Sequence record: MH571750.1
Reading direction: 5' to 3' (one strand)
Source of the DNA: Escherichia phage vB_EcoM-Ro111lw
Length of the DNA stretch: 64,000 bases
The notes under the pieces are model-generated. The model was not told where the DNA came from. It ran no database searches and worked only from the letters and a program-made list of their open reading frames with translations. Position 1 is the stretch's first letter; the number at the start of each line of letters is the position of its first letter. The translations under genes and the position numbers were made by a program. This document shows, piece after piece, positions 1-16,535 of the stretch.

Positions 1-16
1 GCCCCCTTAACATTTT

Positions 17-1110
17 CTTAACAATTTCTTAACAAACCCTACATAGTTATGCTTTTAAGGCACTTGTTAGAGACTTGTTAGCCCCTTGTTAAATCTCTGT
101 TAAGACCACGTAAAAGCCTTGTAAGAGTCTTTGGCATAGCCTTTAAAGCTCCTATAAAGCCCTATAAAGAGGTGTCTGTATAGTTGGGGTGTAGATACTA
201 GGAAGAGGTTTAAAAGAGCTTACAAGGAGCTATAGAGAGCTTTTAAGAGGTATGTTTAAGAGTTCACTAAGAAAGGAAAGGGAACGATAAGGAAGAGATA
301 GTGACCATGTTAATAGCTTGTTAAAAAGATTAAACACTTGTTAGAAACTTGTTAATTATCTAATTGGTATTGTTACCAATCCCTAACAAAATAACTCTTT
401 AAAATTAACTTGTTAGCTCTTGTTAGTCATCTGTTAAGCCTCTGTAAAGACTATTCAGCACTTGTTAGAAAACTGTTAAGCCCTTGTTAGTTCTGTTAAG
501 AAACTGTTAAGACCTTTGAAGAGTTGTTAAGAAGATGTGAGAACTGTTAAGAGATTGTTAAGGATATTTTAAAATTTTGCAAAGTACTTGTAAGGGAGCT
601 GTTAAGGGCTACCAAGCAGATATACATCTTCTACAGATATTTTTCAGTCCCTTCAAAGACCCTAAAAAATGACTTGATAGCCCTATTTTATAAAAATTTT
701 AAAATTCTGAATAATTACCTATACAGTCTTTTAAAAATACAGGTAGAAACAGGCTTATAAGATACCTTGTTAGTACCGTGTTAGACCTTGTGAGATAAGG
801 TCTGTAAAGATATTCCTGTTAAGTTTGTTAAAACAGTCTATATAGAGGCTTAGTATTACCTAGTGAACCCTATAGAGGGTAACATAGCTAACCTAGAGAT
901 TAAGAGGTGTATAGAGGTTTCTAAGAGCGTATAGAGAGGTGGTTAAGGTGATTGTATAGGTTGTTAAGAAGGCTTGTTAGAAGAGTGTTTAGAGGGCTAT
1001 TTAGAAGGGTTATACAGAGGGGCTATTAAGACCACTAGATAGTTACTAAGATACTATATAGTACTATATAACTATATAGAGAGTAAGATTAAGAAGGTTG
1101 TTAAGAAGGA
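17..1110. repeat. Dense array of about 30 short degenerate repeats (consensus YTTGTTAR / CTGTTAAG, some inverted as CTTAACA) interleaved with GTATAGAGRG and CCTATAAAG motifs; iteron-like non-coding region
   Basis: Read directly: e.g. acttgttag at 62-70 and 73-81, tctgttaag 97-105, cttgttag/ctgttaag run 408-563, ccttgttag 765, gttgttaag 959 and 1098; tatagag motifs at 867, 909, 930, 1073. No ORF of 60 aa or more in 1-1214. Confidence 0.6.
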
Positions 1111-1170
1111 TAGATATTTTATTCACATATGATGGTGACCCAGAGGTTGGGACAACCGATAAAATTTTAT

Positions 1171-1202
1171 AAAAAATTAAAAAGCCCCCAATTAAGGAGG
1201 CT
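1171..1202 (-). terminator. Rho-independent terminator-like hairpin (AGCCTCC / GGGGGCT stem followed by a T-run on the minus strand)
   Basis: Reverse complement reads agagcctccttaattgggggctttttt; lies just downstream of the minus-strand gene ending at 1215. Confidence 0.5.
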
Positions 1203-1214
1203 CTTAAGATATTT

Positions 1215-1838
1215 TTAAATCAGTGTTTCCAGAACTGTTTTTAGTGATGACTTGGTTGTCTGATAAAAATGAGTAAAGCCGTTGTTGTTATCAAATACCT
1301 GCATCATGATATCATCTCCCTTGATTGGGTACACTCGGATATCATAGTGAAAACCATTAAAGACACAAGAACCACTACAGAATGCTCTAAAGTCATCTAC
1401 TGAGATATACTCTTCATGACCTGTGATTTTTATACAAACACCTTTACTCGGTCTCTTAGGGTTGATATCTTCCATCACAGACATACTCTGTCCACCAAGA
1501 GATACCATAGTGACCACTTTACGGTTCTTCTGTTTAAAGTACATCTTAACTTTCTGCAAAGTGTCTTCATAGAATGGATAAGACCTTTCTACAAAGATTC
1601 CTTCAAGTGGCTCTTTACCATTTTCAACTTCTCGGTTATGCCGTACTGCAAAGATAATTTGTTCGAACCAGTCAAGATTTTCTTCGGAGAGTGCTTCCCG
1701 AACATCCTTCCAGTCAAGTACTAAGTAGTTACCTTCAACTTCTTTTAAGTTATCTTTTTCCATATCTATCACACCATTATCGTAAAACTTGATATTCTGG
1801 TACTGCGAATTTATTACTATTGTTCTTGATGAGGTCAT
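1215..1838 (-). CDS. Hypothetical protein (207 aa; true start may be the internal Met giving 1215..1763)
   Basis: ORF track; first ATG overlaps the upstream gene by 62 nt, an internal Met would remove the overlap. Confidence 0.5.
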   Translation of the reverse strand: MTSSRTIVINSQYQNIKFYDNGVIDMEKDNLKEVEGNYLVLDWKDVREALSEENLDWFEQIIFAVRHNREVENGKEPLEGIFVERSYPFYEDTLQKVKMYFKQKNRKVVTMVSLGGQSMSVMEDINPKRPSKGVCIKITGHEEYISVDDFRAFCSGSCVFNGFHYDIRVYPIKGDDIMMQVFDNNNGFTHFYQTTKSSLKTVLETLI

Positions 1839-2241
1839 CCTCTGAAACTAAAAATGTAATCCCACATAAGTGTCTGTAACGACTATCATACTCGAATATC
1901 TTAAACAGATATTTACCATCATGATAAACCTGTTGCACTTCACCTTCTGCAACAGTCTCGCCTGTAATAAAATTTTTTAGTTTATACACATTACCAACTT
2001 TAGGTACTGTTTTCATCTCAGGCTCTTTTAGTGCTACACCTATTTTTGCATCACCGAGTAAATGAGAACTCTCAAAAGCTACGTGTTTCATATAAGCTTC
2101 TGAGCATTCCCAAATAAAACAATGTACAAGAACCTTAGCAGCATGTCTTGAGCAGTTCAACTTATCACAAATTTCTGTGTACATCTCATCTTTAGTAGAA
2201 TTGTCAAGCATTGCTCTTTGCACTACTTCTTTAATTTTCAT
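1777..2241 (-). CDS. Hypothetical protein (154 aa)
   Basis: ORF track; member of a co-directional, tightly packed minus-strand gene series. Confidence 0.5.
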   Translation of the reverse strand: MKIKEVVQRAMLDNSTKDEMYTEICDKLNCSRHAAKVLVHCFIWECSEAYMKHVAFESSHLLGDAKIGVALKEPEMKTVPKVGNVYKLKNFITGETVAEGEVQQVYHDGKYLFKIFEYDSRYRHLCGITFLVSEDDLIKNNSNKFAVPEYQVLR

Positions 2242-2659
2242 AAGCTCTCCGAATAACCCTATTAAGCATCTCTAAAGTCAGCTTTCCAGACTCTAAATGT
2301 GGCATAACAAGCTTTAAAGCTTTTTCAACATCATGCACAACATCTATTATACCTTCTTCATAGGCTTCTACAAGGATATCTTTTACGTTTTGTTGGTTAT
2401 CTTTTTGTGGTATTGCTAGACGCATATCAAACTCATTTGCTTGAGGGTGGTCACTACCATGCCAGTAACCATCTTTGTTAAAGCTGATGTAGTCACCGTG
2501 GTAAAAGTGTACACCATTAGCTTTAAACTTCTCCAGCACAAGGCATTGAATTGGGTATTCAGTATTCCACTCCCTGACTCCTATAACCTTCACTGTTGCG
2601 ATGTACTCCTGTGTTTTTGCATCTATGATGTCAAGTTCTTGACCAGCTATGATTTGCAT
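2231..2659 (-). CDS. Hypothetical protein (142 aa)
   Basis: ORF track; start overlaps stop of upstream gene (translational coupling). Confidence 0.55.
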   Translation of the reverse strand: MQIIAGQELDIIDAKTQEYIATVKVIGVREWNTEYPIQCLVLEKFKANGVHFYHGDYISFNKDGYWHGSDHPQANEFDMRLAIPQKDNQQNVKDILVEAYEEGIIDVVHDVEKALKLVMPHLESGKLTLEMLNRVIRRAYEN

Positions 2660-2713
2660 ATTCGCTACCTTCTAAGTTTCTACAAAGGGGCTATCAAGTA
2701 ACCCCTCAAGTTA

Positions 2714-2938
2714 TTACTCAGACTTTTCAGTCTTCTTGTCGGATTTCTTACTAGTCTTCTTCTCAGCTTTCTGCTCAGGCTCCTTCTCAGAAGTTGCCTT
2801 AATAACCATATCAAGAAGCTCTGATAAGTCACTCTTCAGTAAAGTAACAGGCTGCTCATTGTAGAAGTTTTTGTCAAGATAGACTTTGAACTCTTCAATA
2901 GAAGGAAATCCAAAAATTGGTACAGGTGTCTTAATCAT
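2714..2938 (-). CDS. Hypothetical protein with Lys-rich C-terminus (74 aa)
   Basis: ORF track; C-terminal KKTSKKSDKKTEKSE tail. Confidence 0.45.
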   Translation of the reverse strand: MIKTPVPIFGFPSIEEFKVYLDKNFYNEQPVTLLKSDLSELLDMVIKATSEKEPEQKAEKKTSKKSDKKTEKSE

Positions 2939-3014
2939 TACTTAGTTTCTCCATAAGCATCTTTCAAGATTGCCTTGTTAATCATTTCAGCGATTGCAAA
3001 ACGAACACATACAG

Positions 3015-3548
3015 CTATAATTGTAGGTTGCACTCTTTACTTACCTCTTCAAGTTTAACCTCAGAGTCCTTAAGTCGTTTCTTATGAACTCTGAATCTCA
3101 TTAGTGAGATGATGATACCAACTAAAGGTACAGCATACAAGTACCAAACATCATATACCTTTGCAGTAATCTGTGTAATGGTCAAATCTTGAGCTATGGA
3201 ACTGATTGCTGATACTGCCAGTAATGTTGCTAAGAAAAATGCCAGTACCATTACTGTACTCAAACAACCTCTGGCATGGTGTTCATGCTTAATGCACTTA
3301 TTCTTTTCGTCAACAACCCTGTTGTAGTCGTTTGTAAAGTCTCTGTAGAAAGCTTTCAAGTATTCTTTATTGTAACCTTCAAAGCAACCTGTACCGTACC
3401 AATAATCACCACCAAAATGTGCTATGATACCAGTATCCCCGTTTGGTTTGGTTACTCTTAAAGAAGTATGATGGCGAGTATCCTGATAATCTATCTTATA
3501 TCTCTCTTCAAAAATCATTTTCCAACCCCTCTCAATCGTTTGTTCCAT
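3015..3548 (-). CDS. Hypothetical membrane protein (177 aa, two predicted C-terminal TM helices)
   Basis: Hydrophobic stretches LSTVMVLAFFLATLLAVSAISSIA and YLYAVPLVGIIISLM in the translation. Confidence 0.5.
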   Translation of the reverse strand: MEQTIERGWKMIFEERYKIDYQDTRHHTSLRVTKPNGDTGIIAHFGGDYWYGTGCFEGYNKEYLKAFYRDFTNDYNRVVDEKNKCIKHEHHARGCLSTVMVLAFFLATLLAVSAISSIAQDLTITQITAKVYDVWYLYAVPLVGIIISLMRFRVHKKRLKDSEVKLEEVSKECNLQL

Positions 3549-3733
3549 TCAAGGTCAACAAATCTTTGCAGGACTTTCCCTCTAGGTGTTACACCTTTTA
3601 AATCTGCATCGTAACAATGGTAAAAGTCACCTTCAGCATGTTTACCATAGCATTTTCTGATATTCTGGCTTCTGCGATACTGTTCTAACAAGGACAGTTT
3701 GTAGTAATCTTCAACTGTAGTTAGTTTTTTCAT
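3515..3733 (-). CDS. Hypothetical protein (72 aa)
   Basis: ORF track; co-directional with neighbours. Confidence 0.4.
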   Translation of the reverse strand: MKKLTTVEDYYKLSLLEQYRRSQNIRKCYGKHAEGDFYHCYDADLKGVTPRGKVLQRFVDLEWNKRLRGVGK

Positions 3734-3816
3734 TCTTTCACCGTAGTGTTTCTCTAGAAACTAAAAAGGGAACTACCTCTCGATAGCTCCCATCATAGTT
3801 AATATTGTATATTCGG

Positions 3817-4398
3817 TCAAGAGTATTTTTTAGGCAGTAATGCGCTACGCTTGTTACTCTCTTCACTCAATAGTGCGATAAATTCATCACCTTTCCCTTT
3901 CCACGGACTGAATGTAGGGATGTGCTCTCTGATAGCCTCAATCACTGTTTTCAGGGCATTGTTCTTTAACCACCAATCAGATACTGCTGAGGCTACAATA
4001 TAATAAGCACCATCATCTGTGAAAATTGGCTCAGAGATACATGGTGAAATCATAGTGGTGATGATAGAGCCGTTATTCATGTAGTATGTTCTTTTTTCAA
4101 CCTTATCAAGAAGCTTATGTAGGTCTGCAAAGAGACTCACAACCTCTTTATGGTCAATGTCTTTTTCAAGATTTGCTCTATATTTCAGCAGTGCAGCATC
4201 AACCTCTTTATCATTGAATTTGAAGTATTGAACTTCTTCATTCACACATACACTGATGTTGTTGGTGTTTATCGTCAACTTGCACAGTTTGACTGGAGAA
4301 TTGATGTTAGTCTGAAAAAGTGCTACACAGCCTTCTACATTTCCGAAATGCTTGACTAATGTAACTTCTGGTTGAATGTGCTCATTCTCTTCTGACAT
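3817..4398 (-). CDS. Hypothetical protein (193 aa)
   Basis: ORF track. Confidence 0.55.
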   Translation of the reverse strand: MSEENEHIQPEVTLVKHFGNVEGCVALFQTNINSPVKLCKLTINTNNISVCVNEEVQYFKFNDKEVDAALLKYRANLEKDIDHKEVVSLFADLHKLLDKVEKRTYYMNNGSIITTMISPCISEPIFTDDGAYYIVASAVSDWWLKNNALKTVIEAIREHIPTFSPWKGKGDEFIALLSEESNKRSALLPKKYS

Positions 4399-4745
4399 TA
4401 CAGTTTCCTCATTAAATACTTTTTAAGTTGTGTGTTAGGTTTCTCAAAAACTTCTATAGAAGATATCTTGACAGACTCACCACGCATACCTGTATGCTTA
4501 AATATGTAATACTCTAACATCCCTATGTACTTTGCTGGTAAGTCATGTTTGACATACACTGTTACAGAATCTTCAAATTCAACAACCTTTGTACCATCCT
4601 TGTAGTTGAACTCTTTAGGATGGTTGTAGTTGTCAATGTCATACATTAAAAAGAGTCTTTTCCGTTGCATATCAAGCTTATTGGTTAAAGACTCTTTGAT
4701 ATCTGAGAAGTTTTTGTACACTGTGACATGGAGCTTACTCATCAT
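4398..4745 (-). CDS. Hypothetical protein (115 aa)
   Basis: ORF track; stop/start overlap with flanking genes. Confidence 0.5.
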   Translation of the reverse strand: MMSKLHVTVYKNFSDIKESLTNKLDMQRKRLFLMYDIDNYNHPKEFNYKDGTKVVEFEDSVTVYVKHDLPAKYIGMLEYYIFKHTGMRGESVKISSIEVFEKPNTQLKKYLMRKL

Positions 4746-5028
4746 TAAACTCTCTGACGAAGAAATAGTTGACTTTATTATTGCCTACCATAAGGTCAAA
4801 GCAAGTATTTTCAAAAGGCTTGTTGTAGGCATCATATGAAGTGTACGTATCAGCTACTTGTTTAGTATTGAGCTTTTTACTTGATGGGTTTAAGAGGCCA
4901 CCATACAGTTTCTTGATAGCCTCTTCTACAACAGACCAGATAATTTCGTCAGTAATTTCTTCGTACAGGTCAAGTTCACGCTCTAGTGAGAAGTCACAAA
5001 TAGGGAAAACAACCTGTACTTTACTCAT
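4735..5028 (-). CDS. Hypothetical protein (97 aa)
   Basis: ORF track. Confidence 0.5.
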   Translation of the reverse strand: MSKVQVVFPICDFSLERELDLYEEITDEIIWSVVEEAIKKLYGGLLNPSSKKLNTKQVADTYTSYDAYNKPFENTCFDLMVGNNKVNYFFVREFNDE

Positions 5029-5417
5029 TAACGAACAACCTGTGAGACTTGAATTGCTTCAGTTACAGACAAATCACCAACTTTCTCTTCTTTGATAAAA
5101 GTGAAGGTGAGTTCAACAGGCTCTTGCTCTTCTTGCTCAACTGGAATGCCATTAAGCTCATCGCGGATTGATTGAGTTGTCCAGTCTTCTCCACCATCTG
5201 GATAATGGATGGCGTAAAGAGGAAACTCCATGTCATACCAGCCAAATACAGGGCAACCATCTGCATCATCTCGCATTCTGCGAAGGGTGCTACCTGAGCC
5301 TGTAAAGCGAAGACTAATATTCCCATTACACTCAAAAATCACTGCTTCAGCAAGTCCAGCATCTTCTCGACCATCATGGCCAAAGGTGTCAACTTTTACT
5401 TGAATCTCTTTATTCAT
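5028..5417 (-). CDS. Hypothetical acidic protein (129 aa)
   Basis: ORF track; Asp/Glu-rich (EQEEQEPVE). Confidence 0.5.
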   Translation of the reverse strand: MNKEIQVKVDTFGHDGREDAGLAEAVIFECNGNISLRFTGSGSTLRRMRDDADGCPVFGWYDMEFPLYAIHYPDGGEDWTTQSIRDELNGIPVEQEEQEPVELTFTFIKEEKVGDLSVTEAIQVSQVVR

Positions 5418-5808
5418 AAAAACCTCTCTCTGCTTGTTCTATTTTTGCTCTTAAAGCTTCGCAATGTTGTAAATGATAGTTAGCTTCTTGTTCATGTGTT
5501 GCTAACTGCCTTTCCAGAACAGTTTTATAATAACTTGCGAGTTGCTCTTTTGTCAATGGGTGCTCTGAAATAATATCAAGTCCACTTTCGCCAAGAGGGT
5601 TGAATTGTCCATGTTCGTTGACATTGTAAGTCTCAAACTTGAACAGGCCATTGTTCACAGACTCAATAGGTGACAGTTCAACAAGCTCTACAGTAAACCG
5701 TGTATATACTTTGTCACCTCTTGAAACCACATTGTTCCCGACAATGCGTACAAGCGAGCCATTACGAGTGTACTTAAAAGTTCCAAAGTCACTAGCCCAA
5801 AGTTTCAT
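5410..5808 (-). CDS. Hypothetical protein (132 aa)
   Basis: ORF track. Confidence 0.5.
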   Translation of the reverse strand: MKLWASDFGTFKYTRNGSLVRIVGNNVVSRGDKVYTRFTVELVELSPIESVNNGLFKFETYNVNEHGQFNPLGESGLDIISEHPLTKEQLASYYKTVLERQLATHEQEANYHLQHCEALRAKIEQAERGFYE

Positions 5809-5821
5809 AATTTTCTCCTTA

Positions 5822-5850
5822 GAAAATAAAAAAGGCTCCAGAAGGAGCCT
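5822..5850 (-). terminator. Rho-independent terminator (GGCTCC/GGAGCC hairpin plus T-run on the minus strand)
   Basis: Plus strand reads aaaataaaaaaggctccagaaggagcct immediately 3' of the lysozyme gene on the minus strand. Confidence 0.6.
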
Positions 5851-5859
5851 ATGAAGATA

Positions 5860-6324
5860 TTACTTTGGATATACACTGTCAAGATAAATGTCAGCTTCCA
5901 TTCTACGTCTGTTTTTCAGGCCGTTTGAAGTGACCTTCTTACCTTTGACTGTAACCTTGTTCCACCACTGCATAGCTTCTGCACAACCGACCTTATTACC
6001 AGCATTGTGGCGCTTGATAAATGTAGAATCCTGCATAGCTGTGATACCGATGTTGTATGTTTCACTTACAAGTGCATCGAACTCGTTCTGAGAAGTTGGA
6101 ACCTTGATAGCTTTATTCACTGCTGCAACGAACTTCTCAACATCTGCAAGAAGATACTGTTCAGCTTGTTCAGCAGTAATTTTCATACCCATCTTAACAG
6201 GTTTTCCGTCAATACGGATTGTCCCATACCCGATTGTTGGGATTCCGGCAGAGTCTTCGTAAGCCTCTAACTTCAGACCTTCAAAGAACTTAATAGCCTC
6301 TAAACCTTTTCTTGAGAGTTGCAT
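5860..6324 (-). CDS. Endolysin, T4/lambda-type lysozyme (glycoside hydrolase family 24)
   Basis: Translation begins MQLSRKGLEAIKFFEGLKLEAYEDSAGIPTIGYGT..., matching the conserved N-terminal catalytic region of GH24 phage lysozymes (Glu in EGL..AY, Asp, IGYG). Confidence 0.8.
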   Translation of the reverse strand: MQLSRKGLEAIKFFEGLKLEAYEDSAGIPTIGYGTIRIDGKPVKMGMKITAEQAEQYLLADVEKFVAAVNKAIKVPTSQNEFDALVSETYNIGITAMQDSTFIKRHNAGNKVGCAEAMQWWNKVTVKGKKVTSNGLKNRRRMEADIYLDSVYPK

Positions 6325-7208
6325 TATGCCTCCCCTGCTGGGTTAACTGTAACTGTTGCTGCATTAGATGTTACAGAGCCACCTGCACCAGTAACTACAC
6401 AGGTGTAGCTTCCTGAATCAGCAGCGGTTGCACCTTCTTTAGTGTAAGTTGCAGCGGTTGCATCAAGGATATCTTCCTCACCTTTCTTCCACTGGTAACC
6501 TGTTGCACCTGTTGCAGTAACTGCTAAGTTGATGTTTCCACCTTCATTAATAGTCTGGTTAGAAGGTTGCTTGGTAATCACAGGTAGTGCGTTCACAGTC
6601 ACTGTTGCTGCATCTGAGGTAACACTTGTTCCACCTTCTCCAGATACAACACAAGTGTATGAACCAGCGTCAGAAGGTGCTACTGACTGTTTTGTGTAAG
6701 TTGCAGAATTGGCACTAGGGATGTCCTCACCATCCTTTTTCCACTGATATCCAGTGGCGTTAGTTGCTAGAATGGTTAGAGTAAGTGTGCCACCCTCATT
6801 AACTGTTTGACCTGTTGGCTGCTGAGTAATTGCTGGTGGCTTGATAGCATCCTTCAACTTAGCATTCAACATTGAGAATGGTTTAACCCTTGCCAGCCAT
6901 TCACAATAAACTGTATCAACATCTTTACCATTGATAATTGCATATTGTAAGTCCATGAAGAAGTCAGAAGTTCTCATTTGAGCACCAACGCTGTAAAGCA
7001 ACTCATCACTAAATGGGACTTTGTAGTCTGGTTTGTAGTCAAACTTCTCAACTTCTGCAATATCAGCTTCAGGCCAATATGAACTATAGGTAAGTGGTAA
7101 AATAGCCTCTTGATATGTTCTAAAATCATATCTCTTACCAGCCTTTACGTTTGCAATGAAGCCCTTCACAAACTCTTTGAAGTCTGGGTAAGTCTTTGCT
7201 TTAATCAT
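6324..7208 (-). CDS. Protein with N-terminal domain of unknown function and two C-terminal Ig-like (I-set/Big-type) repeats
   Basis: Two tandem about 90-aa repeats each containing ...GYQWKK.GEDI...Y....A..D.GSYTCVV.G.GG..TS.AATVTVN; N-terminal 120 aa paralogous to the product of 7205..7576. Confidence 0.65.
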   Translation of the reverse strand: MIKAKTYPDFKEFVKGFIANVKAGKRYDFRTYQEAILPLTYSSYWPEADIAEVEKFDYKPDYKVPFSDELLYSVGAQMRTSDFFMDLQYAIINGKDVDTVYCEWLARVKPFSMLNAKLKDAIKPPAITQQPTGQTVNEGGTLTLTILATNATGYQWKKDGEDIPSANSATYTKQSVAPSDAGSYTCVVSGEGGTSVTSDAATVTVNALPVITKQPSNQTINEGGNINLAVTATGATGYQWKKGEEDILDATAATYTKEGATAADSGSYTCVVTGAGGSVTSNAATVTVNPAGEA

Positions 7209-7576
7209 TTCTTTTCAGCCTCTAAATGTGCGTTTAGTCTAAAATAACCTTTGTGATTCGGAGATACATCACCAACGACAATACCTTTAACCTTATAACC
7301 TTTACCAATTACATACTGGATATCCATAAGGAATCTTCCAAGACCAACAATATGGAACATTGGGTATAATAGATTCTCAGAGTCTGGAATATTAATTTCA
7401 GGTTTGTAGGTACGCTGTTCGATTGTTGGTGTAATATCTTCTTCAGGCCATTTACTGAGTCTCCATGTCAAAGGTGTTGGGATAACATCATTAAGGTTGT
7501 ACCTTTCACCATTTTGCACGGAATTGATATAGGATTGTAGGAAGCAATAAAAGTCTTTTGCACTCTTAGCTTTCAT
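7205..7576 (-). CDS. Hypothetical protein, paralogue of the N-terminal domain of the Ig-like protein
   Basis: MKAKSAKDFYCFLQSYINSVQNGERY... aligns with MIKAKTYPDFKEFVKGFIANVKAGKRY... and shares the MDIQY motif. Confidence 0.55.
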   Translation of the reverse strand: MKAKSAKDFYCFLQSYINSVQNGERYNLNDVIPTPLTWRLSKWPEEDITPTIEQRTYKPEINIPDSENLLYPMFHIVGLGRFLMDIQYVIGKGYKVKGIVVGDVSPNHKGYFRLNAHLEAEKK

Positions 7577-7595
7577 TAAATATCCTTATAAATAG

Positions 7596-7614
7596 TTAAA
7601 GGGGCATAAGCCCC
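7596..7614 (-). terminator. Hairpin (GGGGC/GCCCC) downstream of minus-strand gene; weak terminator
   Basis: aggggcataagcccct read directly; the flanking T-run is poor. Confidence 0.35.
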
Positions 7615-7623
7615 TATTCACAC

Positions 7624-8214
7624 TTAAGCTTTGGTCTTAAGTAGGTTCTTAAGTTTTTTAAGATTCATACTCTCATCAAACTTAAAACCAAATCCATTGA
7701 CATAATCAATGAGCTCGGATTTCTTACTGAGTGACAATGCGTAACTCATATCAAAGTTCTTACTTGTTTCTGCATCTGGACTAGAGTTCACATCAAATGA
7801 AATTTCCGTAGGCTCTTGCTTACTTTTTCTCATATTATCAACCAACAAACATGTATAGTTTGCTGGATAGAAATTTACACTACCATCAACGTAGCTGTAC
7901 TTATTATTATGGATAAGGTTGGAAAATACCTTAAGGAATGTTTCTGAGTCGTGGCAAACAAGTTTGAATTGGCTGCTCTCTCCAAGCGCAACTAATGAAT
8001 ACGGACTTTCACTATCAAAGTCATAATTTGGATTAGATGCCGTCACTGTTACACGCATCAAGTTATTAGCAATAGTCTTCTGTTTAAAAGAATTTTGAAC
8101 ATAGTGAAGACCTCTATCACACTGATTGACTAGCTCTTTAAGAAGGTCATTTGCATATGGTGAATTAATTGATACAGAGCCATCACTATTGTAATTAAAA
8201 CTTACTGTTAACAT
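7624..8214 (-). CDS. Hypothetical protein (196 aa)
   Basis: ORF track. Confidence 0.5.
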   Translation of the reverse strand: MLTVSFNYNSDGSVSINSPYANDLLKELVNQCDRGLHYVQNSFKQKTIANNLMRVTVTASNPNYDFDSESPYSLVALGESSQFKLVCHDSETFLKVFSNLIHNNKYSYVDGSVNFYPANYTCLLVDNMRKSKQEPTEISFDVNSSPDAETSKNFDMSYALSLSKKSELIDYVNGFGFKFDESMNLKKLKNLLKTKA

Positions 8215-8441
8215 TTTTCAGTTCTCCTGCGATTTATAATTTTGCTGCAATAGAGAAACGAAGTAAACTCACTGGAAGAAACCATTAAGTGTTGTTCACT
8301 AGATTGAGCCATTGCCCTGAAATACATTCCAGTCAAAGCATCATAGTGACTATTCTTTCCAATTGAGGTTATATAGCCATGACTCTTTGCAGTTTGATAT
8401 AAATCTATAATATCTGCGATTTCTAATTGGGAACTACACAT
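8208..8441 (-). CDS. Hypothetical protein (77 aa)
   Basis: ORF track. Confidence 0.4.
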   Translation of the reverse strand: MCSSQLEIADIIDLYQTAKSHGYITSIGKNSHYDALTGMYFRAMAQSSEQHLMVSSSEFTSFLYCSKIINRRRTEKC

Positions 8442-8605
8442 AGATAATCCTCTTGTCTTCTGTAATTTTGAAAGAACAGGTACAGACCAATTTCAGAGGA
8501 TGAATAGTAGATTAACTCTACCCTTTTTGATTCCTTACAGTGATTGGTATTCTTACCTTTCTTCGGTTTATTTGATTTTCTCATTAAGTCTCCTTTGTAG
8601 AACAA
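8423..8605 (-). CDS. Hypothetical small basic protein (60 aa), first gene of the minus-strand operon
   Basis: ORF track; weakly supported. Confidence 0.3.
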   Translation of the reverse strand: MFYKGDLMRKSNKPKKGKNTNHCKESKRVELIYYSSSEIGLYLFFQNYRRQEDYLCVVPN

Positions 8606-8682
8606 GGCAGACCTACAGCTTAACTAAGATGGTACAGTAATCCATACAACAAGTCAAGAACTATTGCAAGTTAAAAAAGTTG

Positions 8683-8707
8683 TTGACAAAGTACTTGACA
8701 AGGTGTA
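8683..8707 (+). promoter_or_regulatory. Conserved 25-nt motif with tandem TTGACAA half-sites 12 bp apart (GTTGACAAAGTACTTGACAAGGTGT) in a divergent intergenic region; second copy at 50107
   Basis: Identical except one base to the sequence at 50107-50131; both lie between divergently transcribed gene blocks. Confidence 0.5.
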
Positions 8708-8832
8708 GGCTTATAAATACTTAGAAGATAACTTAAAAGGTTCCTCTAAAAAGGCTATTTAAACAGATATCTTTCTGGATATCTATCTTTTATCTTAAAA
8801 GCCTTTTAAGAGGTCTTATAAGAGGCATACCA

Positions 8833-14377: not shown

Positions 14378-14620
14378 ATGCAAACATTAACAGTAGTTGA
14401 ACATGAAAACTGTGAGAGTATTGAGTTTGTCAGGGTCATTGGTGTTGAACACCACATTTTCTTAAAAGTGGGATACTTATGTGACCCCGCTAGAGTAGAA
14501 AGATTTATACGTGATTGTTTTGGTGGTAGACATCTGAAGAGTGTTATTTTTGAGACAGTTTTACCAGAAGGTTTAGAAACGAATAATAACATTTACCTCC
14601 TTACGAGGATTAGACAATGA
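14378..14620 (+). CDS. Hypothetical protein (80 aa) embedded in the tRNA array
   Basis: ORF track; AAGGTG Shine-Dalgarno 8 nt upstream of ATG; stop overlaps the next start (ATGA). Confidence 0.5.
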   Translation: MQTLTVVEHENCESIEFVRVIGVEHHIFLKVGYLCDPARVERFIRDCFGGRHLKSVIFETVLPEGLETNNNIYLLTRIRQ

Positions 14621-15174
14621 GATACTTAAAGTATGCTTCATGGATTTTCTTAGCTTTGTTAGAGCCATTTGCAGCAATCTTAGCAGTTATCTTAGCACCT
14701 TTTGTAGTTCCATTCTACAGTGAGAAGAAAGGACACTTACCTTTCGGGTTCAGATGGATGGAGACATATGACAACCCAATTGATGGTGATGAAGGTCACG
14801 TTAAAAGATGGGCTAATATTAGATGGATTGGTAAACTAGGCGTCTACATGCAAAGAGTTGGATGGCTCTGGAGAAACAAAGCTTATAACTTCTCTTACCA
14901 TGTATTAGGAAGAGATGTAAAAGATGTTACTAAGTGGAAAGGTAATATCAACGTAAGTTCTAACCCTGAAGATAATCAGACTGGTTATCTCCTAATGTGG
15001 AACAGTAATGCTTGGGGATTATTCGCTTTTATCCCATCAATTAAAGTCTTCGGTAAACAGTTTTACTGGAGAATTTATGTTGGATGGAAACTTAAAAGTG
15101 TTGTCCCAGAAGAAAGAGCATTCTCAAGGGAAAGAGTTATGTTGGCATTCTTTATTCATCCACTGAGAAAGTAA
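14617..15174 (+). CDS. Hypothetical protein (185 aa) with N-terminal transmembrane helix, embedded in the tRNA array
   Basis: ORF track; N-terminal WIFLALLEPFAAILAVILAPFVV hydrophobic segment; Trp-rich. Confidence 0.5.
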   Translation: MRYLKYASWIFLALLEPFAAILAVILAPFVVPFYSEKKGHLPFGFRWMETYDNPIDGDEGHVKRWANIRWIGKLGVYMQRVGWLWRNKAYNFSYHVLGRDVKDVTKWKGNINVSSNPEDNQTGYLLMWNSNAWGLFAFIPSIKVFGKQFYWRIYVGWKLKSVVPEERAFSRERVMLAFFIHPLRK

Positions 15175-15182
15175 AGATTTAA

Positions 15183-15258
15183 AGGGGATTAGTTTACAAG
15201 GTTAAAACCTCGGTCTTTGAAATCGAAGAAGTTGGTTCAATTCCAACATCCCCCGCCA
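15183..15258 (+). tRNA. tRNA-Gln (anticodon UUG)
   Basis: Acceptor AGGGGAT/ATCCCCC (1-72 mismatch), D-stem GTTT/AAAC, anticodon stem TCGGT/ATCGA loop CTTTGAA, T-arm GTTGG-TTCAATT-CCAAC, CCA. Confidence 0.75.
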
Positions 15259-15260
15259 AT

Positions 15261-15339
15261 GCTCCATTACTCCAATTGGCAGAGAGGCCAGACTTAAAAT
15301 CTGTGTTATGTATCGGTTCGAATCCGATATGGAGTACCA
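15261..15339 (+). tRNA. tRNA with Leu anticodon UAA and short variable loop; tRNA-Leu(UAA), atypical class I-like
   Basis: Acceptor GCTCCAT/ATGGAGT, anticodon stem CAGA/TCTG loop CTTAAAA, T-arm ATCGG-TTCGAAT-CCGAT, A73, CCA; 79 nt. Confidence 0.55.
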
Positions 15340-15344
15340 AATTT

Positions 15345-15420
15345 AGCGGTATAGCATAACTGGCAATGCAGCAGTCTCTGAAGCTGTCCTATTAAGGTTC
15401 AAATCCTTATGCCGCTGCCA
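15345..15420 (+). tRNA. tRNA-Gln (anticodon CUG)
   Basis: Acceptor AGCGGTA/TGCCGCT, anticodon stem GCAGT/GCTGT loop CTCTGAA, T-loop TTCAAAT, CCA. Confidence 0.7.
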
Positions 15421-15450
15421 CTTCTAAGGATTCTTACGAGAGTCCTTAAA
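15421..15450 (+). promoter_or_regulatory. Hairpin carrying the conserved 10-mer TTCTTACGAG (copy 2)
   Basis: cttctaaggattcttacgagagtccttaaa; same 10-mer as at 11560. Confidence 0.35.
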
Positions 15451-15451
15451 T

Positions 15452-15527
15452 GTGGCCTTATCATAAATGGTAATGACCCATGCTGTGAACATGGTCTATA
15501 CGGGTTCAAATCCCGTAGGTCACCCCA
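15452..15527 (+). tRNA. tRNA-His (anticodon GUG)
   Basis: Acceptor GTGGCCT/AGGTCAC, anticodon stem CCATG/CATGG loop CTGTGAA, T-arm ACGGG-TTCAAAT-CCCGT, C73, CCA. Confidence 0.8.
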
Positions 15528-15532
15528 ATTTA

Positions 15533-15609
15533 TAGTCCAAGTAGCTTATATGGTTAAAGCGCGTGTCTGAAAAACATGAGAAGAGGGTTCAAATCCCACT
15601 GGACTACCA
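15533..15609 (+). tRNA. tRNA-Phe (anticodon GAA); 3' end ambiguous (CCA directly follows the acceptor stem)
   Basis: Acceptor TAGTCCA/TGGACTA, anticodon stem CGTGT/ACATG loop CTGAAAA, T-loop TTCAAAT. Confidence 0.7.
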
Positions 15610-15625
15610 ATTTCAAAGGTGCTTA

Positions 15626-16360
15626 ATGAAAGAGATGACAGAACAAGGTAAGGAGATTTTCAATCTCTTAAAAACCGGTAAAGGGTTTTCTAACCCCCTT
15701 ATTACTGGTGCAGCAGTTCTCGGTGGAACCGTAGCTGCCTCTACATCACTTGTAAGCTCTATTAGCTCTGTATCAGACCCTACAGTAAAGGATAAGCTTG
15801 TTGCTGCTGGACTTACAACAGTTCTGCTTAACAGCTTTACCACGAGTCTGACAAGCACTACATCAACTACCAAAACACTAACAGATTACGGTCAAAAGTC
15901 CATTGATGAGTTTTCATCACGTATGCAGGTAGCAAAAGGTTACTCTAATGTTATGGGTGCAGCAGGTGAACAAGTTGGCTGTACACCATTTAGTGGTATT
16001 ATGGGTGTTGCTACAGAGTATGGTCAAAAAGCTATTGATACGATTAACAGTGCACTAGATAGTGTTAATGGTGTGTTAAGTGACTTACAAGATGCTATTG
16101 ACAAAGGTCTTGATACTATTTCTGATTTAGCTGAGCAAGCTGTTAGTAAGATTAATGAAGGTATTTCAAAAATTACAGCTTATGCAGATGAAGTTGTGCA
16201 GATGATTGAAGAAGAAGCTGCTCTTATTGCAGAGTACCTTAAAACGAATATCAATGGGTTCTTAGCAGGTATCTTACCAGACTGGTTTGATGATGCTTGT
16301 AAAACTGGTGTAATTGACACTATTGCAACACCAGAAATGAAGAACGCATTACAGAAATAA
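15626..16360 (+). CDS. Hypothetical Ser/Thr-rich protein (244 aa) embedded in the tRNA array; start trimmed from ORF-track 15563
   Basis: ORF-track start at 15563 lies inside tRNA-Phe; internal ATG at 15626 is preceded by AAAGGTG. Confidence 0.5.
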   Translation: MKEMTEQGKEIFNLLKTGKGFSNPLITGAAVLGGTVAASTSLVSSISSVSDPTVKDKLVAAGLTTVLLNSFTTSLTSTTSTTKTLTDYGQKSIDEFSSRMQVAKGYSNVMGAAGEQVGCTPFSGIMGVATEYGQKAIDTINSALDSVNGVLSDLQDAIDKGLDTISDLAEQAVSKINEGISKITAYADEVVQMIEEEAALIAEYLKTNINGFLAGILPDWFDDACKTGVIDTIATPEMKNALQK

Positions 16361-16362
16361 AT

Positions 16363-16455
16363 GGAAGATTAACCCTAAAAGGTAAGGGAGCAGTTTGCTA
16401 AACTGCCAGTAGCTGAGAAATCGGTGTACCAGTTCAAGTCTGGTATCTTCCTCCA
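16363..16455 (+). tRNA. tRNA-Ser (anticodon GCU), long variable arm
   Basis: Perfect acceptor GGAAGAT/ATCTTCC, anticodon stem GCAGT/ACTGC loop TTGCTAA, long variable arm, T-arm ACCAG-TTCAAGT-CTGGT, CCA. Confidence 0.8.
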
Positions 16456-16459
16456 ATTT

Positions 16460-16535
16460 GAATCCGTGACAGAAATGGCTATGTGCCTGTCTGCAAAACA
16501 GGTTTATAAGGGTTCGAGTCCCTTCGGATTCTCCA
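16460..16535 (+). tRNA. tRNA-Cys (anticodon GCA)
   Basis: Perfect acceptor GAATCCG/CGGATTC, anticodon stem CCTGT/ACAGG loop CTGCAAA, T-arm AAGGG-TTCGAGT-CCCTT, CCA. Confidence 0.8.

Follow-up and report, generated by a model that had tools for sequence, protein, structure and literature searches.

What is the function of a dense run of small minus-strand genes surrounding a phage lysozyme gene, and are these genes read as one operon? We address this question for a block at positions 1215-8605 of a 64,000-nt stretch of the Escherichia phage vB_EcoM-Ro111lw genome (record MH571750.1; this stretch, at its full length, is the window). An initial annotation, made from the sequence alone, described the block as a single seventeen-gene operon that ends at a strong hairpin and forms a reservoir of host-takeover and anti-defence functions. 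Here, genes are numbered g1 to g17 from the low-coordinate end, so that g17 is transcribed first, and proteins without family assignment are referred to as ORFans. In the interpretation that we favour and consider reasonably likely, the block is a conserved array of Felix O1-like phages that comprises 18 genes in at least three sigma70-type transcription units, most of them dispensable accessories of host-dependent value that lie beside genes for a lysin and a Hex-Dec capsid protein.

The block is a conserved array of Felix O1-like phages

Using positions 1000-9000 as a megablast query, we matched 253 phage records, 201 of which cover at least 80% of the query. Most matches are 90-96% identical, the close Felixounavirus set (>200 records) has a DNA identity of 93-96%, and almost all matched phages, which infect Escherichia, Salmonella, Shigella or Citrobacter, belong to the genus Felixounavirus. 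By this similarity, we assign the window to a Felixounavirus genome. Moreover, the block is collinear gene by gene with ORF24 to ORF40 of Felix O1, bas63_0112 to 0128 of Bas63 (JohannRWettstein), gp029-044 of AYO145A and genes 32-18 of fjerdesal. In the Felix O1 genome paper, the region ('genes 40-24') counts among four 'transcriptons' and includes lysin gp35 and 'tail protein' gp36 (Whichard et al. 2010, PMC3185647). In total, homology identifies the block as the conserved leftward small-gene array of Felix O1-like phages; it is real and already known, from publications since 2010 and from the annotation of hundreds of genomes.

The orthologous Felix O1 genes encode proteins with 72-100% identity where shared, and the Felix O1 terminators t29, t35 and t38 as well as gp35 and gp36 have counterparts in the block; of the two phages, only the present one has g3 and only Felix O1 has ORF29. 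The Felix O1 paper (PMC3185647) reported one direction of transcription and left passage through the terminators open; promoters adjacent to terminators were not described. Bas63 has the same 17-gene layout, including a 31-aa gene, and a neighbouring gene, gp130, with 99% identity; however, it lacks g3, and its counterparts of g10, g2 and g11 are just 69-83% identical.

Seventeen of the 18 block genes are common to Felixounavirus, Suspvirus and Mooglevirus, and only the slots holding g3 and ORF29 are variable. Beyond these genera, only g12, g13 and g15, plus g7 in the Hafnia phage Zyzzx, reach the Hafnia and Erwinia Ounavirinae, and g11 to g1 are found as a set only in the Felixounavirus/Suspvirus/Mooglevirus clade. 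By tblastn, the block families are restricted to Ounavirinae, the sole exception being the N-terminal ~58 residues of g2 (residues 1-58; positions 2068-2241), which share ~33% identity with hypothetical proteins encoded by ~40-kb Klebsiella podophages and also match phrog_9565. In the Erwinia phage phiEa21-4 (Kolesnikvirus), gp41 to gp33 include syntenic small ORFs, a g15 homologue, an immunoglobulin (Ig)-bearing decoration protein and the endolysin, and this block is likewise divergent from a DUF5681 gene and a tRNA cluster; it differs in that there is no separate g14 and in that the endolysin gene is terminator-flanked and followed by annotated holin genes in place of g11 to g1. Altogether, the best-supported description is a two-part array with an ancestral part, g17 to g12, and a clade-specific part, g11 to g1.

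The block contains 18 genes under purifying selection

The initial annotation listed 17 consecutive minus-strand open reading frames (ORFs), all of which we recovered at the same positions, and its description of tight packing with frequent stop-start overlaps was borne out: with 18 genes counted, 12 of the 17 junctions overlap by 1-19 nt, the others have gaps of 47, 51, 83, 54 and 13 nt only, and the 7370-nt span holds 7209 nt of summed gene length (overlaps counted twice). The 18th gene, g4b, which starts with GTG, had been overlooked; the annotations of Bas63, Mordin, Sf13 and EcSzw-2 include it, and its ratio of non-synonymous to synonymous divergence (dN/dS) is 0.08-0.21. In comparisons with seven relatives from three genera, dN/dS is 0.00-0.47 for each of the 18 ORFs, often at a synonymous divergence (dS) >1, and g10 and g3 evolve fastest. 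This purifying selection establishes that the ORFs are real genes and not chance ORFs.

Three start sites were also revised. The start of g17 is most likely the ATG at 8584, which is preceded by an AAGGAG Shine-Dalgarno sequence and gives a protein of 53 aa, rather than the TTG at 8605. That of g1 is most likely at 1763 because the similarity to the Mordin homologue, i.e. cross-genus conservation, begins at this predicted Met. The start of g5 is probably at 3518.

Conserved terminators and promoters divide the block into at least three predicted units

The proposed strong terminal hairpin (1171-1202) is present as a GC hairpin at 1180-1205 with a T-run to about 1170. The single operon, by contrast, is argued against by two strong and conserved predicted internal terminators with adjacent predicted promoters. 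All four internal intergenic gaps >40 nt hold a GC-rich hairpin on the coding strand. The hairpins after the endolysin gene (5833-5850) and after g7 (3768-3791) are strong and have long T-runs; those after g15 (7601-7614) and g4 (2685-2707) are weak and may be attenuators. Three of the four match the Felix O1 terminators t35, t29 and t38 (PMC3185647), and the AYO145A and Mordin records annotate terminators at matching places. In Felixounavirus, Suspvirus and Mooglevirus alike, the stems persist while the loops differ: the t29 equivalent is kept in all three genera with changes on both arms, EcSzw-2 dropping one base per arm, and the hairpin at 7601-7614 has an invariant stem and a variable loop.

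A sigma70-like promoter lies directly 5' of each strong terminator, P4 at 3820-3792 and P3 at 5882-5854. Among eight genomes from three genera, the -10 hexamer TATGAT of P4 is invariant and the -35 hexamer TTGAC(C/A) varies only at its sixth base; by contrast, the spacer varies in sequence and is 17 or 18 nt long, and the g7 stop codon is either a TGA inside the -35 hexamer or a TAA before it. Thus, the conserved hexamers represent a promoter footprint and not coding constraint. For P3, the CTT-GAC at the end of the endolysin gene is invariant while neighbouring wobble positions change, and the positions of the -35 and -10 hexamers are kept across genera. In the whole window, P3 and P4 are the only high-scoring promoter-like sites that abut strong GC-rich hairpins passing the terminator scan; two other promoter-plus-hairpin sites that were flagged have weak 5-bp AT-rich stems, and we judged them chance matches. 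In total, the block probably falls into three or more predicted units, which run from g17 to g12 (unit A), from g11 to g7 (unit B) and from g6 to g1 (unit C). On this model, transcripts would start a few nucleotides past 8629, 5854 and 3792 and end near 5825, 3760 and 1172.

The upstream end of the block stands out at the nucleotide level. Between 8150 and 8900, the DNA of g16, g17 and the divergent intergenic region is better conserved than any other part of the block, with a cross-genus identity of 85-96% compared with 40-80% elsewhere, and the synonymous divergence of g16 and g17 is abnormally low (0.1-0.9 versus 1-2). These observations suggest that the DNA recently recombined or that selection acts on the nucleotides themselves, as in an operator or RNA element.

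Within the block, genes are gained and lost right after hairpin junctions. The slot just 3' of P4 (3734-3816) is empty here and holds an extra gene for a protein of 181-249 aa in Felix O1 (ORF29), Mordin, Sf13 and EcSzw-2; similarly, the slot of g3, which is missing from Felix O1, Bas63 and Sf13, directly follows the weak hairpin after g4.

g12 encodes a predicted endolysin

The g12 product matches PF00959 (Phage_lysozyme) over residues 13-143 (E 6.6e-41; cut-off 22.3 bits) and the PHROG 'endolysin' (E 4e-58), and is 99% identical to Felix O1 gp35. The GH24 catalytic motif is Glu-x8-Asp/Cys-x5-Thr, and the translation of g12 contains E15-x8-D24-x5-T30. By these matches, we identify g12 as a GH24 endolysin. 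No transmembrane (TM) segment was found in g12, which would therefore depend on a holin encoded elsewhere.

g13 encodes a predicted Hex-Dec capsid decoration protein with a paralogue, g14

The lysozyme had been considered the only product with a recognisable motif; however, g13 matches Ig_3 and I-set (E 1e-22 to 1e-15) in two stretches, residues 124-205 and 209-283, corresponding to two Ig-like domains. Moreover, residues 1-124 match the Protein Data Bank (PDB) chains 9ncf_S (E 1.1e-76) and 9c2d_S (E 5.3e-67) as well as chain S of 9c3a. Entry 9c3a is the Sf14 capsid, and we take the virion of entry 9ncf, whose chain is a 460-aa 'immunoglobulin-like domain protein', to be that of Bas63. Arg79 and Arg107 of Sf14 gp20, which contact the major capsid protein, are present in g13. 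Cryo-electron microscopy (cryo-EM) papers described Hex-Dec (Sf14 gp20) as a Hoc-like monomer, the N-terminal domain of which plugs the centre of some capsid hexamers while its Ig-like domains, one to four per protein in the genus, point outward. The Felix O1 virion proteome contains the orthologue, gp36. Thus, homology identifies g13 as a Hex-Dec capsid decoration protein and not a tail protein; the capsid location was shown for its orthologues by cryo-EM and mass spectrometry.

The length of Hex-Dec varies among close relatives (294 aa here, with the Ig region at 6324-6840; 377 aa in AYO145A, 460 aa in Bas63 and 210 aa in EcSzw-2), in agreement with the published one to four Ig repeats. The capsid-binding domain of the Bas63 protein is nearly identical to that of g13, the difference being that the former has four predicted Ig-like domains and the latter two. 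Hoc resembles g13 in being a monomer with a capsid-binding domain at hexamer centres and an outward string of Ig-like domains, and a similar function has been proposed. However, the domain order of g13 is reversed, its capsid-binding domain being N-terminal; the capsid-binding domain of Hex-Dec has a greater size, a distinct topology and pseudo-twofold symmetry, and it binds only a subset of hexamers; and sequence similarity is minimal. The minimal similarity and reversed domains support that g13 is Hoc-like in its mode of action rather than a member of the Hoc family.

The g14 product aligns with the capsid-binding domain of g13 with 37% identity over 101 aa (E 2e-16; phmmer E 1e-14), and its stop codon overlaps the g13 start by 4 nt. 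We found no paralogues within the window other than g13 and g14. This similarity makes g14 a paralogue of the capsid-binding domain of Hex-Dec alone; its Arg79 position is not aligned, and capsid binding is therefore not implied. Among 1.84 billion representative proteins, a two-sequence g13/g14 profile retrieved no more than 13 clusters, of which three have the domain-only length. Searches by term in the two Hex-Dec structural papers turned up nothing on the g14 product.

Together with g12 and g13, g15 reaches distant Ounavirinae, and it is the only gene of unassigned function to do so; it is 29% identical to its counterparts in the Hafnia phage Zyzzx and the Erwinia phage phiEa21-4. In an AlphaFold2 model from 19 sequences (mean predicted local distance difference test score 80), a disordered linker connects the two-lobed alpha/beta N-domain to a small helical end. 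A resemblance of the N-domain to the capsid-binding domain was confirmed by neither Foldseek nor profile comparison and is kept as a lead only, and the g15 family profile found nothing below E 0.29 among PDB sequences. A HeH/SAP-like motif at the C-terminus was dropped, as it had no Pfam support even on isolated fragments. A precomputed PF26097 tag on two distant g15 relatives (P0098 and P0099) was not reproduced by direct hmmscan.

The remaining small proteins are ORFans

The products of g1-g11, g16 and g17 match no family of Pfam, NCBIfam or PADLOC and no PDB sequence, and their PHROGs are all of 'unknown function'; g4b was scanned against PADLOC and NCBIfam only. The PDB sequence search used 16 concatenated products, leaving out g12, the Ig part of g13 and g4b, and yielded Hex-Dec chains as its sole matches. 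The products of g10 (net charge -15) and g9 are very acidic, and those of g6, g8 and g17 are basic. Some records label g10 homologues 'D-alanyl-D-alanine carboxypeptidase', which lacks family support and which we regard as a mislabel.

g5 has two membrane segments and adjoins g4b, which encodes a hydrophobic mini-protein. An assignment of g5 as a holin is unsupported: the protein has an 80-aa cytoplasmic N-domain, and detailed annotations carry no lysis label. Similarly, g4b as an o-spanin is unsupported, given the lack of a canonical lipobox and a mature peptide that would be 22 aa. The Bas63 paper located holins elsewhere, at about 46-66 kb; the Mordin record, which details terminators and ribosome sites, lists the g5 homologue merely as hypothetical; and the Moogle genome note described lysis genes as scattered. 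The coordinates of all features are given in Table 1.

Table 1. Genes and predicted regulatory elements of the block, with a gene found in relatives
Feature	Position	Strand	Remarks
Terminal intrinsic terminator, unit C	1170..1205	-	AAGAGCCTCC-TTAATT-GGGGGCTTTT + T-run; kept with altered stem in Mordin, Sf13
g1, 182 aa ORFan	1215..1763	-	Felix O1 ORF24, Bas63_0112; phrog_4330; ORF open to 1838
g2, 154 aa ORFan	1777..2241	-	ORF25, Bas63_0113; phrog_4713, phrog_9565
g3, 142 aa	2231..2659	-	Only variable gene of the block; highest dN/dS (0.29-0.47)
Weak hairpin 3' of g4	2685..2707	-	No real T-run; marks variable cassette slot holding g3
g4, 74 aa	2714..2938	-	Lys-rich tail; ORF26, Bas63_0114
g4b, 31-aa hydrophobic mini-protein	2938..3033	-	Bas63_0115
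g5, 167 aa membrane protein	3015..3518	-	ORF27, Bas63_0116; TM residues 82-100, 121-139
g6, 72 aa, basic	3515..3733	-	C-x3-H-x7-H-C motif; ORF28, Bas63_0117; first gene of unit C
Strong terminator ending unit B	3758..3791	-	GGGAGCTATC-GAGA-GGTAGTTCCC + TTTTTAGTTT; stem 3768-3791; = Felix O1 t29
Promoter P4 (unit C)	3792..3820	-	TTGACC-N17-TATGAT; abuts terminator stem
g7, 193 aa ORFan	3817..4398	-	ORF30, Bas63_0118; 27%-identical relative in Hafnia phage Zyzzx
g8, 115 aa basic ORFan	4398..4745	-	ORF31
g9, 97 aa acidic ORFan	4735..5028	-	ORF32
g10, 129 aa very acidic ORFan	5028..5417	-	Net charge -15; 69-98% identity within genus
g11, 132 aa ORFan	5410..5808	-	ORF34; first gene of unit B
Strong terminator ending unit A	5823..5850	-	GGCTCC-TTCT-GGAGCC + TTTTTTATTTT; stem 5833-5850; = Felix O1 t35
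Promoter P3 (unit B)	5854..5882	-	TTGACA-N17-TATCTT; annotated in AYO145A; overlaps 3' end of endolysin gene
g12, predicted GH24 endolysin, 154 aa	5860..6324	-	Felix O1 gp35, Bas63_0123
g13, predicted Hex-Dec (Hoc-like) capsid decoration protein	6324..7208	-	N-terminal capsid-binding domain + two Ig-like domains
g14, 123 aa	7205..7576	-	Predicted paralogue of Hex-Dec capsid-binding domain, without Ig domains
Weak hairpin 3' of g15	7601..7614	-	GGGGC-TTAT-GCCCC, poor T-run; = Felix O1 t38
g15, 196 aa	7624..8214	-	Kept across Ounavirinae; alpha/beta N-domain, disordered linker, small helical C-terminus
g16, 77 aa	8208..8441	-	Identity 99-100% in genus, 91-92% across genera
g17, 53 aa, basic	8423..8584	-	First gene of unit A; phrog_8138 covers residues 8-60
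Divergent control region	8585..8832		Tandem sigma70-like promoters + palindrome AGATATC-N6-GATATCT
Control-region promoter	8629-8657		TTGACT-N17-TACCAT
Control-region promoter	8660-8689		TTGTCA-N18-AATAGT
Extra gene in P4-adjacent slot of relatives	L013 4125-4670; L009 5913-6662

Expression of most block-gene orthologues peaks in the middle or late period, and some matter more on one host

In Felix O1, end-point reverse transcription PCR (RT-PCR), a crude timing method, gave a peak at 25 or 60 min for 14 of the 15 orthologues tested. ORFs 24, 25, 26, 28, 29, 32, 33, 34, 35 and 38 peaked at 25 min, whereas ORFs 30, 36 and 37 (the orthologues of g7, g13 and g14) did so at 60 min. A maximum at 5 min was seen only for ORF31 (g8). 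This timing, together with the stable gene content across genera, contradicts a view of the block as an early operon of takeover and anti-defence genes.

In a Bas63 knockout library (PhageMaP), genes 114, 116 and 124, which by locus tag are the orthologues of g4, g5 and g13, had a higher essentiality on strain S17-1 than on the three further hosts, and we conclude from this screen that these accessories may have host-dependent value. Bas63 gene 123, by our locus-tag mapping the orthologue of the endolysin gene g12, acts as a trigger of retron Ec67; the trigger of DRT7, Bas63-035, lies outside the block. The HIDEN-SEQ and transposon essentiality preprints include no Felixounavirus.

The Bas63 counters validated against 12 defence systems are g77, g79, g80, g84, g85 and g130, none of which lies within the block. 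Searches of Pfam, PHROGs, NCBIfam, PADLOC and PDB sequences, made without a dedicated anti-defence library, related none of the products to a known anti-defence or host-shutoff protein. The plus-strand ORF at 9286-10701, outside the block, encodes a vWA/DUF2828/DUF7788 (Ro60-like) protein with 99% identity to Bas63 gp130, which was experimentally shown to counter the ppl defence system. Thus, the nearest validated anti-defence gene is outside the block and on the other strand.

Features flanking the block

The first ~1.2 kb of the window (1-1170), downstream of the block, is ORF-free and densely filled with short plus-strand repeats of the type CTTGTTA(A/G), often 11 nt apart; this spacing equals one helical turn. 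The repeats look like an iteron-type protein-binding array, possibly a replication origin. Felix O1 has a comparable 1.6-kb geneless gap between ORF23 and ORF24, which is not discussed in PMC3185647. On the plus strand at 10867-16535, ARAGORN found 26 tRNA genes, 24 of which were confirmed by Rfam.

Discussion

In the interpretation that we favour, host RNA polymerase of the sigma70 type would read the array as at least three units. Unit A would start in the ultra-conserved divergent control region and end at a strong terminator; it is the ancestral part held in common with distant Ounavirinae, and its predicted cargo is Hex-Dec (g13), the paralogue g14, the conserved g15 and the endolysin. 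Units B and C would each start at a promoter placed directly against the preceding terminator. Transcripts starting ~7 nt past the -10 hexamer would begin inside the 5' arm of the hairpin, so that the hairpin could not form; each terminator would thereby stop the upstream unit and spare the next. Units B and C would encode ORFan accessories, including the membrane-associated group g5, g4b and g4, and most ORFans would be dispensable accessories of host-dependent value rather than a dedicated early host-takeover cassette.

Several observations weigh against this interpretation. Promoter-like and terminator-like sites are not in excess over shuffled sequence (33 versus 26.2 and 6 versus 5.6, respectively), and the case for both kinds of element thus rests on their position and cross-genus conservation. 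No promoter was found in front of g14 or g3. We found no RNA-seq study of a Felix O1-like phage in the literature. The RT-PCR classes are mixed within units A and B, which fits neither one operon nor clean units. Moreover, the Bas63 paper describes essentiality in this part of the genome as 'varying', and ~15 proteins are without an assigned function.

Could the block nevertheless be a single 17-gene operon of early genes for host takeover and the blocking of host defences? Clusters of small non-essential early genes are known from virulent phages such as T4 and T7 and resemble this block in their dense small ORFans, their host-type promoters and the conditional usefulness of some genes. Here, too, the ORFans are small, tightly packed and without family assignment, and the sigma70-type promoters would be usable by unmodified host polymerase. 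An early takeover operon would also accommodate the 5-min peak of the g8 orthologue, the strongly acidic g10 and g9, the fast evolution of g10 and g3 and the conditional essentiality of the g4 and g5 orthologues on S17-1. The block differs from the T4 and T7 clusters, however, in containing late structural and lysis genes, in its mostly middle or late expression peaks and in a gene content that is stable across genera. The strong conserved internal terminators with adjacent promoters, the endolysin and Hex-Dec genes within the block, the peaks at 25 or 60 min of 14 of 15 tested orthologues and the gene content kept across three genera all argue against such an operon, as does the finding that no counter validated against the 12 systems lies in the block while gp130 lies outside on the opposite strand. 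Altogether, we regard it as decidedly unlikely.

The idea of a host-takeover and anti-defence reservoir consequently stands only in part. It agrees with the mostly small unmatched ORFans, the conserved sigma70-type promoters and the host dependence of the g4, g5 and g13 orthologues on S17-1; it does not hold as the main role of at least two genes, those for the endolysin and Hex-Dec, and is unproven for about 15. For individual ORFans, such a role is possible, the g4/g4b/g5 group and g10 or g3 being the most plausible candidates.

A module of the opposite kind, in which the whole block would serve late virion-accessory and lysis functions and the unassigned products would be decoration or assembly factors and lysis regulators working with Hex-Dec and the endolysin, appears highly unlikely. 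That g13 is a predicted virion protein and g14 its paralogue, that the g7, g13 and g14 orthologues peak at 60 min, that the membrane proteins g5 and g4b are encoded near the lysin and that phiEa21-4 has holin genes at the equivalent position downstream of its endolysin gene would all fit. However, gp36 (g13) is the only block product in the Felix O1 virion proteome, and of the PDB chains from Felix O1-like virions only Hex-Dec matches block proteins. The similarity of g15 to the capsid-binding domain was unconfirmed by Foldseek or profile comparison, and the g5 homologue of Mordin labelled hypothetical, the scattered lysis genes of Moogle and the distant holins of Bas63 likewise argue against a lysis module. 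Finally, that the small ORFs are chance reading frames in AT-rich phage DNA, as the shortness of several (31-77 aa) and the omission of g17 and g4b from some annotations might suggest, is effectively refuted by a dN/dS far under 1 for all ORFs, g4b and g17 included, by a PHROG family for each ORF scanned (g4b was not among them) and by gene order and length kept across three genera at dS >1.

Beyond the interpretation of a three-unit accessory array, we can envisage, as an unlikely extension, that the head of unit C (g6, g5, g4b and g4) is a membrane counter to a host-specific function and/or that g13, g14 and g15 form a capsid-binding family. If the former were true, the target could be an exclusion or defence function carried by S17-1, a strain with integrated RP4/Mu/Tn7 DNA, and the genes would represent a new kind of counter-defence without known relatives. 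If there were a three-member family on the Hex-Dec fold, docking on capsid hexamers, or competition for these sites, would extend to g14 and g15.

The region has been described before and does not open a long-standing question, and our additions are incremental: an 18th gene, three start corrections, promoters that abut terminators and show cross-genus footprints, the split into ancestral and clade-specific parts and the paralogy of g13 and g14, to which g15 may belong as a third member. Felix O1-like phages are, however, widely used in Salmonella and E. coli typing, biocontrol and therapy, and the block accounts for about one in eight genes of their genomes, mostly without an assigned function. 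The practical worth of the analysis is a corrected map, with 18 genes, revised starts, at least three predicted units, compact terminator-promoter junctions and ancestral and clade-specific halves. On this map, the first candidates would be g4/g4b/g5, in relation to S17-1, the acidic and fast-evolving g10, the variable g3, and g14 and g15 as relatives, in the case of g15 possible, of the capsid-binding domain.

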